A stretch of 25,310 nt of DNA, from positions 1 through 25,310 of the IMG/VR virus record IMGVR_UViG_3300000970_000007; one strand, given 5' to 3'. Of this stretch, positions 1,499 to 11,726 are shown piece after piece. A program made the translations under genes and the position numbers. Each line of letters opens with the position of its first letter. Within the stretch, counting starts at the first letter, position 1. The DNA comes from a virus. Under the pieces are notes generated by a model. That model was given only the letters and a program-made list of their open reading frames with translations. It had not been told where the DNA came from and searched no databases.

Positions 1499-1633
1499 GG
1501 CATATAACAACGTGTATAGCCTATTGCTACTTACTGCTATTTCAAAGGTTTGTTATTATTAATTTATTTTGTTTTTAATTCGATACTTTTTGTCTGTTTA
1601 CACGCAACATACCATACACAAAACGTTATGCAC
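1499..1633 (+). repeat. attC-like site A
   Basis: GGCATATAAC-AAC-GTGTATAG..TTGC ... GCAA..CCATACAC-AAAAC-GTTATGCAC: imperfect palindrome with AAC and GTT cores. Confidence 0.8.
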
Positions 1634-2219
1634 AACCTATCGACAACCACGTTTTACTGCAATATTTAATTTGATGATAACAGTCGGCTAATGCATTATG
1701 AGCTGTTCCGTTAAATTCTAGTTGTTTTTTGATTTCAGGTTTAAAACTTACTAAGGTTCTAACACACCTCTCTTTTCTAAAATCCCACGGTATATTAAAA
1801 TGAGTTTGAGCGTATGCATCTGCCATTATACCTAAATCAAAACTAGCTGAATTACCCCATATTTGATATTCTTTAGAGCAGAACTTACCGAAATCTAATA
1901 AAGCTTGTTTTATTGAAACAGGTTCTTCTTTGGTAAGGCTTTTACGAGCTTCATCGCTTTGTGACATCCACCACATAACAGTACTAGCATCTATATTTAA
2001 ACCTAAATCAACAGAAGACTTTAAAGATATGTTTCGATAGAACTCTCGACCTGTGTTTCCTGTATTAATATCGAACTCAACAGCACCAATACTTATTATA
2101 GCTGAATTAGACTTAGTTCCCATTGTTTCAATATCTACCATTAAGTGAGAAAATGGTGTGTGCATAACACGTTGTATAGCGCATTGCTTAGTTTCTGTAT
2201 TTTTATTTTCTGTATTCAT
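1626..2219 (-). CDS. 3'-5' exo(ribo)nuclease, DEDDh / Rv2179c-like
   Basis: Motifs HLMVDIETMG, WGNSASFD and HNALADCYHQ. Confidence 0.85.
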   Translation of the reverse strand: MNTENKNTETKQCAIQRVMHTPFSHLMVDIETMGTKSNSAIISIGAVEFDINTGNTGREFYRNISLKSSVDLGLNIDASTVMWWMSQSDEARKSLTKEEPVSIKQALLDFGKFCSKEYQIWGNSASFDLGIMADAYAQTHFNIPWDFRKERCVRTLVSFKPEIKKQLEFNGTAHNALADCYHQIKYCSKTWLSIGCA

Positions 2220-2297
2220 AATTTGAAAGTTGTTTAATATTTATTAAGTTCGTGCTGTAAGGTCGCAACGTCACCATACAAGTAGCCGTTATATGCC
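2159..2297 (+). repeat. attC-like site B
   Basis: TGTGCATAAC-ACG-TTGTATAG..TTGC ... GCAA..CCATACAA-GTAGCC-GTTATATGCC. Confidence 0.8.
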
Positions 2298-2528
2298 ATA
2301 ATCCTCAATTCCGAAGGTTATTCGCTGTTCAAAATCTTCTTGCACTATGCTTTCTATATTCTCAATCTTTTCCTCGTGAGTAAGTTCATTCCATTCTTCC
2401 TCGCCCATTAAATCGTTTTCAACGTCAATCACTGTTCGTTGTGGTCTGCTTTTACCCGCATAACCATCTTCTACCTCCCATACTACTGTTATTTTTTCCA
2501 TCTTATTAAAATTTACGGCATATAACAC
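2289..2528 (-). CDS. small acidic hypothetical protein (cassette cargo)
   Basis: 79-aa ORF bounded by sites B and C. The real start may be the internal MEKITV; motif WEVEDGYAGKSRPQ. Confidence 0.75.
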   Translation of the reverse strand: MLYAVNFNKMEKITVVWEVEDGYAGKSRPQRTVIDVENDLMGEEEWNELTHEEKIENIESIVQEDFEQRITFGIEDYGI

Positions 2529-2617
2529 AGTATATAGTGTATATCCTTGTTAAACATTTGGTCTTTAGCCGAAAGTTAGTGGTGTCGGCTACACACCATA
2601 CACAAACCGTTATCTAC
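2517..2617 (+). repeat. attC-like site C
   Basis: GGCATATAAC-ACA-GTATATAGTGTA ... TACACACCATACAC-AAACC-GTTATCTAC. Confidence 0.8.
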
Positions 2618-2907
2618 AATTCAGAAGCACCTACCTTTTCCATTAAGGTTAGTAGTTCTTCTTTGTAGTGTTGCTCATTCTCATAAATTTCTTCGTGAGT
2701 TATTTTACCTTGTGCGAACATTTCTTTGCACATTTTAAACCCGAGTAAAACACCTTCTATTCTTGATATTTCAATTATTTCTTCAACTGATTTTGGGTAA
2801 ATAACATCTACTCCCCAAGTGTCTTGGTGCTTTACTCTTTCGTAATATTCGTTTGCTTTTGACATAATAAATTTATTTAGTGAAGTGGAATGAACAGTAG
2901 ATAACAC
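2614..2907 (-). CDS. hypothetical protein (cassette cargo)
   Basis: 97-aa ORF bounded by sites C and D; the real start is probably the internal MSKANE. Confidence 0.75.
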   Translation of the reverse strand: MLSTVHSTSLNKFIMSKANEYYERVKHQDTWGVDVIYPKSVEEIIEISRIEGVLLGFKMCKEMFAQGKITHEEIYENEQHYKEELLTLMEKVGASEL

Positions 2908-2962
2908 GGTATATGACGTAACTCCACTTCGTTACGCTACGCATATACAAAACGTTGTGCTT
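2897..2962 (+). repeat. attC-like site D (short, 66 bp)
   Basis: GTAGATAAC-ACG-GTATATG-A-CGTAAC-TCCACTTC-GTTACG-CTACG-CATATAC-AAAAC-GTTGTGCTT: a clean hairpin of classical 59-base-element size. Confidence 0.85.
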
Positions 2963-2973
2963 CATTAAAACGA

Positions 2974-3237
2974 AAGCACTACATGGTATATAAAACATAC
3001 ACTCACTAAAAAGGTAGGTACTGAATATAGTACCTCAATCTTTGCCTAAATCCCCAAGTAATTTTGTGGGTTATCGTGTAAATTCCAAGCCATCCATGCT
3101 CTATACTAATCCACTTTTGTTCTTTATTAAATCTAATTTTCATAATTTAAATTTTATTAGTTTAAGTACTAAGCCTATTAACACCTCTACGTCAGCTTTT
3201 AATCGTTAGCCGAACGCATATATTAACCGTTAGCTAC
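2974..3237 (+). repeat. attC-like site E (long, left core mutated)
   Basis: Left arm AAGCACTAC-ATG-GTATATAAAAC and right arm GCATATAT-TAACC-GTTAGCTAC. Confidence 0.6.
3006..3143 (-). CDS. small hypothetical protein inside site E (45 aa)
   Basis: Hand translation MKIRFNKEQKWISIEHGWLG...YIQYLPF*, preceded by AAATTATG like other genes in the window. Confidence 0.45.
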   Translation of the reverse strand: MKIRFNKEQKWISIEHGWLGIYTITHKITWGFRQRLRYYIQYLPF

Positions 3238-3469
3238 AATAAGCTAAACTGCCGTTTCACCTCTTTCCAATACTTATGATTCAGCCTATCGCTATCATAG
3301 ATATTAGGCTTGTCATTTAGTATTTCATCTACGCAAATAATAGCAAAGGCTTTAATCCATTAATGAGCATCCATTACTCCTAAATGTAGTTTATATCTAA
3401 TATCTTCACTAGCTTCAATTCTTTGAATTAATCCTCCTTTAATTTCTATTCTTACTGTTTCCGTAACAT
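3234..3469 (-). pseudogene. chimeric pseudogene
   Basis: Frame reads ETVRIEIKGGLIQRIEAS-EDIRYKLHLGVMDAH*WIKAFA-IICVDEIL...YWKEVKRQFSLL*. Internal TAA at 3360-3362; the ATG at 3469 is out of frame. Confidence 0.7.
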
Positions 3470-7801: not shown

Positions 7802-7826
7802 ATTTATTAGTTTGTAGTAAATATTT

Positions 7827-7901
7827 TCAAATATTCACTTTATAATTTGGTTTCTTTTTAAATTGCCAAATCAAAGTGTAAGTTATTGATATTGTGTCCA
7901 T
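7827..7901 (-). pseudogene. truncated paralogue of ORF 1093-1317
   Basis: MDTISITYTLIWQFKKKPNYKVNI* versus MDTISITYTLIWQFKRFPNYKVTK... Confidence 0.8.
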
Positions 7902-8011
7902 TGTATGGCTACTACAAAGAACACCCTAACAGTTACCAACAACACATATAAAACATTAAATAGCATTGTCTTTTTAAATGGTTTACCGTTTATTTCTAAA
8001 TTTAATTTCAT
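7883..8011 (-). CDS. small hydrophobic ORF starting inside site F (42 aa)
   Basis: MKLNLEINGKPFKKTMLFNVLYVLLVTVRVFFVVAIQWTQYQ*. Confidence 0.35.
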   Translation of the reverse strand: MKLNLEINGKPFKKTMLFNVLYVLLVTVRVFFVVAIQWTQYQ

Positions 8012-9286: not shown

Positions 9287-9346
9287 AGTATTATAGTTTA
9301 TAGATTAGTTCAAAGGTAAATACAAACGTTGGATTAAAGGTATTTG

Positions 9347-9440
9347 AAAATTTACAGTTTTATTTTTTGATAAAGGTTAATATTGGTGGTAAGTTAAAAA
9401 TTTACAGTTTTATTAATTTTAAAAGGTAAATAATGGTGGT
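9347..9440. repeat. imperfect tandem repeat with 50-bp period
   Basis: AAAATTTACAGTTTTATT at 9347 and 9397; AAAGGTWAATAWTGGTGGT at 9372 and 9422. Confidence 0.85.
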
Positions 9441-10945: not shown

Positions 10946-11259
10946 AGTAATGTTTATTCTATCCGCTTCTTTCAACTATAAAGATAGATACTTATAGTTA
11001 TGTTTCAGAACTTAATTCTTTAGGCGATTAAGTTCCTTTTTATTGTGCCTTTTGTCTCCACAAACATTGACAATTTTTAGATGGTTTTTTAGTTGTTTCC
11101 TAACTAATGCTATTTTAATCCAATTTGCTAACTTATAGTTAGTCTTTCAAAGAACGCATTTACACTATCCTTTATTATTTGCGTGTTTTCGCTCAATACT
11201 TTAGGCTTTGCGACCCTTTTTTAGTGTTGGTACACTTTTGTAACTCTTTTGCTACACTT

Positions 11260-11291
11260 CAAAGGTAAGAATTATATTTGAATAATCCAAA
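11260..11291 (-). promoter_or_regulatory. Bacteroidota primary-sigma promoter
   Basis: Minus strand TTTG-N20-TACCTTTG, matching the -33/-7 consensus. Confidence 0.75.
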
Positions 11292-11338
11292 TCTTTTTTT
11301 TTGCTTTATTTTAGAACCGTTGTTCTAATTGCTTTATG

Positions 11339-11370
11339 TAAAGATAAGAATGTTTTTTGTTTATTCCTAA
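11339..11370 (-). promoter_or_regulatory. promoter variant
   Basis: Minus strand TTAG-N20-TATCTTTA; shares the ATTCTTA context with the 11260 promoter. Confidence 0.6.
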
Positions 11371-11428
11371 TAATTACCAATATTTATTTTTAAACTGCCT
11401 TTCACTAAAGGACTTGTTTTTGTTACTA

Positions 11429-11460
11429 TAAAGATAAGAATAATAGTTGAATAAATCTAA
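11429..11460 (-). promoter_or_regulatory. promoter variant
   Basis: Minus strand TTAG-N20-TATCTTTA. Confidence 0.6.
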
Positions 11461-11726
11461 TTTTTAAAGCTTAATTTTCGTTTTTTATCATTTAATCCAC
11501 CTATCTATATCGACCGTATGAATTATACTAAACTTACTAATAAAGAGCCACCTAAATAATTTAACTAATTTAATAGTATTAAAAAGGCTATTATCTCAAT
11601 TATTAATCGTTACCTCTGTAACACATTGTAAAGATAAGCATAATTTTTAAATAAAAAAGTAAAAAACTAAATTAATTTAAAATATTTCTGTTATCTAATG
11701 GTTGACGTTTCAACCTTACAACAATA

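Follow-up and report, generated by a model that had tools for sequence, protein, structure and literature searches.

Five palindromes alternate with small genes between positions 1499 and 3237 of a stretch that we call the window, which consists of bases 1-25,310 of a virus record of 121,014 bases (IMGVR_UViG_3300000970_000007; completeness 80% by CheckV). The question raised by this locus is whether these genes are mobile cassettes of an integron-like system carried by a phage and, if so, which enzyme moves them. A preliminary description, made from the letters of the window, had read the palindromes as attC sites served by an IntI-type integrase of the host or of a distant part of the phage genome. 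The large terminase of the record shares about 35% identity with the terminases of Cellulophaga phages phi17:2 and phi4:1 and has weaker matches among crAss-like phages, and because of this resemblance the host is probably a member of the Bacteroidota. The array itself is embedded among small minus-strand genes.

All ten cores of the five sites were found at the positions claimed for them, on the plus strand. Site A spans 1499-1634 (cores 1499-1508 and 1625-1634, G/TT crossover at 1625/1626), so that its start stood and its end moved one base beyond the 1633 given before. Site B spans 2159-2297 (cores 2159-2168 and 2288-2297, G/TT at 2288/2289), site C 2517-2617 (cores 2517-2526 and 2609-2617, G/TT at 2609/2610), and the short site D 2897-2962 (cores 2897-2905 and 2954-2962, G/TT at 2954/2955). 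Site E, at 2974-3237 (cores 2974-2982 and 3229-3237), is degenerate, and its left core is mutated (TAC). The shared ends are palindromic as described, but their spacers are better given as AAC-N5-RTAWR...YWTAY-N7/8-GTT than as AAC-N3-GTRTAT...CATAYAC-N5/6-GTT. The central observation of the preliminary description, that each right core matches the left core of the next site, was confirmed at 10/10, 10/10, 9/9 and 8/9 positions, while a sixth site (F) to which it referred does not exist, and a partner core for site E is absent from the whole record. The right-arm motif has seven plus-strand matches in the 121,014 bases, five of which are sites A to E, and perfect 9-nt core pairs flanked by the motif occur three times, all within the array. 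None of 100 dinucleotide shuffles reached three such pairs (84 had none, 13 had one and 3 had two), a favourable control in that the motif was derived from the window sites and Freya sites. Relatives of single sites are found in other phages: sites of Tenacibaculum phage JQ and of an integrase-linked array (L171) are related to site A at 73-76%, and site B matches a site of a Polaribacter phage, Freya, at 76.8% over about 137 nt.

Site structure was assessed by a direct count of paired positions between the two arms. Sites A to E pair at 10, 8, 10, 7 and 6 of 14 positions against a non-cognate mean of 5.8; pairing is clear for A to C and moderate for D, and site E does not rise above background. 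Folded alone under a minimum-energy model, only B and D form end-to-end hairpins. The modelled circle junction of site D has a minus-strand fold with a z of -5.85, and at all three intact window junctions the minus (gene) strand folds better. The imperfect hairpin with one favoured strand that characterizes attC sites is thus present here, weakly for site E, and AAC and GTT are retained, although none of the five sites fits the attC consensus cores RYYYAAC/GTTRRRY. As the hairpins separate co-oriented genes and have their best folds on the strand with the sense of the mRNA, they could also be terminators or regulatory RNA between early genes, exchanged by homologous recombination of look-alike repeats. 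We regard this as very improbable, as Rfam has no match to the window hairpins, the sole terminator-like match lies inside site E, and the complementarity links neighbouring sites across a gene. It is also contradicted by the breakpoints in Freya isolates, which have only three to four shared letters, and by the recurrence of the second cassette in other contigs, both described below.

The crossovers divide the array into four cassettes, and the first three gaps between sites each hold one ORF, as had been noted, on the minus strand. Cassette 1 (1626-2288) combines site B with a 197-aa gene (1626-2219, minus) predicted to encode an Rv2179c-like 3'-5' exoribonuclease (PF16473, E 3.9e-58; phrog_255). 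The ATG of this gene lies within the loop of site B, which codes for residues 1-17 of the ORF, and its stop codon lies within a core of site A. It is the sole annotated cargo of the array, with a putative role in infection, and a relative is held by another integrase-linked array (L056). Cassette 2 (2289-2609) combines site C with an acidic 70-aa ORF (2289-2501, minus; stop codon in the core, weak match to phrog_7018), and cassette 3 (2610-2954), a predicted unit with a core match of 9/9, would combine site D with an 83-aa gene (2614-2865, minus). Cassette 4 (2955-3229) consists of the degenerate site E and a gene-less body of 28 nt, the gap between D and E, which contains the family loop CATTAAAACG (2963-2972, plus); gene-less mini-cassettes with this loop are present at several other loci. 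A candidate ORF of 45 aa lies in the loop of site E (3006-3143, minus). A fifth cassette gene (3234-3467, minus) is broken by an internal stop and is without a partner core.

Cross-complementary cores fit two different units, the gene with the site at its 5' end or the gene with the site at its 3' end, and since both are possible we sought the same DNA elsewhere. The stretches 1626-2288 and 2289-2609 were both found in other DNA at 88-98% identity, with new neighbours beginning at G/TT. In a contig of run X4, cassette 1 matches over 1626-2290 with 34 differing letters and is followed by foreign sequence right after GTT, and in run X2, from another study, two contigs cease to match at 1622 and 2292, beyond which they run on into different site-like sequence. 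Cassette 2 is present in two metagenome contigs, L249 (87.9%) and L250 (90.1%), both matching from 2288 and both with different neighbours on the two sides; the match stops at 2611 in L250, and in L249 the BLAST alignment runs to 2641 although by eye the sequences part after 2612. Pairs of cassettes from viral loci were compared as well, after removal of 35 of the 41 pairs as duplicates of one DNA. All four remaining pairs with bodies at least 88% identical, three of which stem from three loci, keep the 5' site (0.92-1.0) and have a changed 3' site (0.48-0.57). In the two pairs with bodies at 70-73% both sites are near background, as is the 5' site wherever bodies are 70-77% identical (0.52-0.62). 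An earlier shuffling test had yielded two sharing pairs among 118 units, too few to be of use.

Cassettes 1 and 2 therefore recur elsewhere as exactly the units that had been predicted, in agreement with the proposed cassette recombination at plus-strand G/TT. Because the matches in X4 and X2, those in L249 and L250, and the body pairs all keep the 5' site, the unit is the gene with the site at its 5' end, or TT...gene...site...G on the plus strand. A unit of gene and 3' site is ruled out by the same three sets of data and by the Freya isolates. The crossover at G/TT with cassettes as units is that of integrons, whereas the site goes with the 5' end of the gene and not, as in attC, with its 3' end. 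For cassette 3, the only close homologue of the gene (86.6%) is in a DNA that is filed twice (L235/L236) and has no sites there; at 2460-2760 of L235 the gene is without flanking sites yet accompanied by core-like remnants, and this copy is either a decayed cassette or a source gene. The distant homologues of the second gene were judged by eye, and five of five are without sites.

Exact gain and loss among relatives, which the preliminary description had put forward as a way of checking it, is seen among cultured phages. Compared with Freya_10, six of six Freya isolates break at AAC: AAC-bounded stretches of Freya_10 are missing from Freya_1, 2, 5, 8 and 9, and Freya_6 has a new 472-nt insert at the half-site. 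The junctions in Freya_5, 6 and 9 are interior, and those in Freya_1, 2 and 8 lie 0-4 nt from the record origin and are weaker. Taken as a whole, the Freya_1-10 records (L050, L052, L228 and L240-L248) constitute a natural series, with exact losses of cassettes and a single insertion, at the half-site beside the recombinase. The paper on the isolation of these phages reports genome sizes of 44.0-48.9 kb, and the words "integron", "cassette" and "insertion" are each absent from its main text (PMC8776804). Danklef_1 and Danklef_5 have the same annotation over 6-kb recombinase flanks, without gain or loss between them. The recombinase region of Danklef_1 (L226, 5689-6453) is annotated as short pieces, so the gene looks broken, and a cassette-like unit lies just before it. 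In phages P12002L (L237, 29237-30952) and JQ (L051, 5056-7213), DNA methyltransferase genes are located in or between cassettes of the family.

The Freya_10 array closes with a half-site, after which comes the gene of a 271-aa tyrosine recombinase. Among viral loci of this recombinase family with 1.5 kb of upstream sequence, a set in which distant integrases and one or more duplicate DNAs are included, 38 of 59 have a chain of at least two cassettes ending within 400 nt of the gene, compared with 1 of 65 bacterial loci; the chain finder also yields spurious chains (L124, L169). A conserved half-site lies 40-110 nt before the gene. Judged from this linkage rather than from catalysis, the recombinase likely drives the cassette arrays. 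The phage enzymes fall mostly into one clade of 57 tips (53 viral and 4 from genome-bin contigs; support 0.89) in a midpoint-rooted tree without an outgroup. By its sequence, the enzyme is predicted to be a recombinase of the Xer type, about 270 aa long, without the insert specific to IntI. The family profile aligns to archaeal Xer proteins in a single piece, and its alignment to IntI4 is split in two by a stretch where 30 profile positions face 78 residues of IntI4. Its best matches are NF040815 and the structures 4a8e and 5hxy, with archaeal XerA nearest, all at scores below the curated cut-offs. The spacing within the catalytic domain has a median of 86 residues for the viral enzymes (61 proteins) and of 91 for the host enzymes (74 proteins, range 86-96).

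These results bear directly on the first proposal, that the sites are ordinary attC sites on which a classical IntI integron integrase from the host acts. The G/TT crossover and the strand asymmetry are as in attC, and the integron-integrase model TIGR02249 recognizes each of the 14 members of alignment A2 (E below 1e-10). It does so at 156 bits against a cut-off of 265, and the IntI insert is missing from the enzyme linked to such arrays. Nor do the cores fit canonical attC, as a full GTTRRRY is present in 11% of 179 family cores. Experiments with sites of the Polaribacter phage P12002L, as far as the accessible text of that study describes them, can be read both ways: P12002L_attC2, which in our analysis ends at the G/TT of a family cassette, recombined with IntI1 on the bottom strand only, and P12002L_attC1, an intact family site, was the only one among six sites that was not verified with IntI1 (PMC9892861). 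We assign the two forward oligonucleotides to opposite strands, and P12002L_attC1 may thus have been delivered on its non-recombining strand. On balance, we consider service by a classical IntI enzyme improbable, and we favour the short Xer-type recombinase.

Relatives of this recombinase are also found in bacteria. The best 80 bacterial matches are mostly from Bacteroidota and have a sister layout in which the arrays lie downstream of the recombinase gene and the cassette genes are on the top strand. Where enough flank is available, a chain of at least two cassettes is present at 16 of 26 loci and of at least three at 8 of 26, some of them spurious, and 31 bacterial contigs end within 600 nt downstream of the gene compared with 6 upstream. 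The sites of these sister elements have the same geometry as the phage sites, on the strand opposite their genes (14/15; 19/26). In several loci on Bacteroidota chromosomes a half-site lies about 100-130 nt past the recombinase, and at L071, L083, L108, L109, L119 and L120 sister arrays with normally oriented genes stand downstream, after a tandem recombinase gene.

Across the family, 174 of 179 bodies, chosen for a minimum of 9 nt, have cassette ends complementary over 9-10 nt, and over 129 sites cognate arms pair at 9.87 of 14 positions against 5.79 for non-cognate arms. The asymmetry of the strands is consistent: the gene strand pairs G with T 222 times against 64 for A with C, it is the better fold in 114 of 147 sites, and in 103 of 118 scored sites the longer spacer, with 2-5 extra bases beside the crossover, is on its 5' side. 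The loop CATTAAAACG stands opposite the recombinase strand 47 to 1 and is on the plus strand in the window. As this loop marks the top strand, the plus strand of the window is the top strand, and the genes of the phage array are inverted relative to it, which the preliminary description had missed. The same constant loop closes short sites and gene-less cassette bodies with differing stems.

The inversion has consequences for how the genes are read. In 135 of 147 cassettes the recombinase strand carries the longest ORF, which in 47 of these 135 starts inside the site, and GTT is read as valine in 34 of the 47 read-through ORFs. Eight of 2,538 compared pairs of sites are related, and seven of the eight precede unrelated genes; in four of those seven, including site B and its Freya counterpart, homologous leaders are joined in frame to differing domains. 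Site B has more in common with the Freya site (0.77) than with the sites of relatives of its own gene (0.57-0.61). A tentative reading, which we rate as possible though less likely than not, is that of a phage integron-like platform without the IntI domain, whose sites double as translation-start and N-terminal leader modules kept in a single frame and in which crossover at the other core builds cassettes and in-frame fusions. A rare crossover of this kind would move a gene with intact ends to a new site. Fast arm divergence, or the reuse of site families in cassette creation, are alternatives to such swapping. If it is true, leader swapping exposes a route to the creation of cassettes, of which the constant CATTAAAACG loop would be a trace. 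To our knowledge the origin of integron cassettes is an unsolved question, and leader swapping may bear on it.

The state of the array in this particular phage is a separate matter. The absence of an integrase noted in the preliminary description holds for the entire 121,014-base record, in which searches with PF00589, the Freya protein and the family profile over six frames gave no match. No docking half-site was found in the record, and a half-site-like motif at genome position 114,493 was rejected as it is inside an ORF; the adjacent tyrosine recombinase and attI-like half-site of integrons are thus missing from this record and present in its relatives. The gene after site A (1299-1472, minus) encodes 57 aa, whereas its homologues have 69-81 aa in 11 of 11 cases; it is truncated at its 3' end, where ORF 1093-1317 starts, and appears to have been cut by that ORF. 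The 5' part of this 74-aa ORF (phrog_35066) is repeated 6.6 kb away at 7824-7904. Two copies of an 85-nt direct repeat, 87% identical, lie left of the array (950-1034) and within the broken fifth cassette gene (3324-3408), and the block looks as if it had been acquired from another phage. Elsewhere in the window, short AT-rich direct repeats at 11256-11655 and 9344-9440 are in gene-poor sequence near a switch of coding strand and are possibly early promoters, and the very start of the record (1-50) has a short tandem duplication. A promoter scan, with 8 matches against 15.5 expected, was uninformative, and two scans for exact patterns gave no match. The check for circles that had been suggested came out negative: contigs of four runs, from which rare variants are dropped, contain no circle or deletion joints, and the best-matching run, at a depth of about 4, has no joint or circle for the array.

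Because the record is without a recombinase and both end cassettes are broken, we call the array an orphan. The block may have the same origin and yet be an inert relic, which arrived from another phage through homologous or illegitimate recombination and has ceased to be shuffled in this lineage; the direct repeats on both sides of it, the broken end cassettes, the mutated core of site E, the missing recombinase and half-site and the lack of joints all fit such a history. Three junctions nevertheless retain perfect complementarity over 9-10 nt, the genes are open, Bacteroidota genomes hold the sister recombinase with sites of the same geometry, and the record is just 80% complete. We take the relic to be a serious possibility, if a little short of an even chance, and present-day activity in this phage to be about an even bet. 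With considerably more confidence, we believe that the row of gene cassettes is an orphaned part of an integron-like system that Bacteroidota phages run with a short Xer-type tyrosine recombinase. In such a system, the single-stranded minus (gene-coding) strand of a site would fold into a hairpin, and the recombinase would cut it at AA/C on the gene strand. The excised circle would carry a self-complementary site and would insert at the half-site or at another site, leaving cross-matching cores. With the genes inverted, the site loop would supply the translation start, and often an N-terminal leader through GTT read as valine. The enzyme for this array would act in trans, from a sister element of the host, a prophage or a co-infecting phage, or would be encoded in the unsequenced part of the genome.

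The window array is itself a small orphan example, and the meaning of the system lies beyond it. A cassette system without the IntI-specific domain would widen the definition of integrons, and its recombinase would escape any search in which an IntI profile is demanded. It would give phages, crAss-like ones included, a site-specific means of trading accessory genes, and the common geometry of the sites suggests that hosts take part in this trade as well. Exact cassette differences already exist among the cultured Freya isolates, in which the mechanism is open to direct test. We found no description of such a system in the open literature of PubMed Central and bioRxiv, a scope outside which most subscription papers fall.

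The closest known systems are the integrons. As in integrons, a recombinase gene stands beside a half-site and a tandem row of one-gene cassettes, the crossover is at G/TT, cassette ends are complementary, one strand folds better and insertion occurs beside the recombinase gene, as in Freya_6. In contrast to integrons, the recombinase of the phage family is about 270 aa long, is without the IntI-specific domain and is nearest to archaeal XerA, the cores are not GTTRRRY, the spacers are 5 and 7-8, and the phage genes are inverted, being read towards the recombinase gene and often starting inside the site. Sites of the attC type also have extrahelical bases and L boxes, in canonical positions. 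The IntI-specific additional domain is treated as defining and as necessary for integron recombination in the part of the literature available to us (10.1101/2022.02.06.479319), where integrons of Spirochaetota in reverse orientation are also mentioned, with enzymes classed as IntI. Our Bacteroidota sister elements are like these in having recombinase and cassette genes on one strand, and differ in that the 74 host enzymes are all short-spaced; the phage form has the opposite layout. The nearest likeness among phages is with the attC-like clusters without integrase (CALINs) described in virulent phages, P12002L among them (Qi et al. 2023; PMC9892861). The window array fits the layout of a CALIN, and P12002L_attC1, which adjoins a cross-matching cassette, contains the family loop. 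Those clusters were treated as substrates of IntI, with one family site called by HattCI, and the accessible text of that study describes no dedicated short recombinase, inverted genes or variation of the Freya type. XerA, XerC and XerD provide the best profile and structure-sequence matches of the family recombinase, which differs from them in its scores below curated cut-offs and in a gene that is tied to cassette arrays. By the tests of IntI and attC the system is not a member of the integrons, but it works like one.
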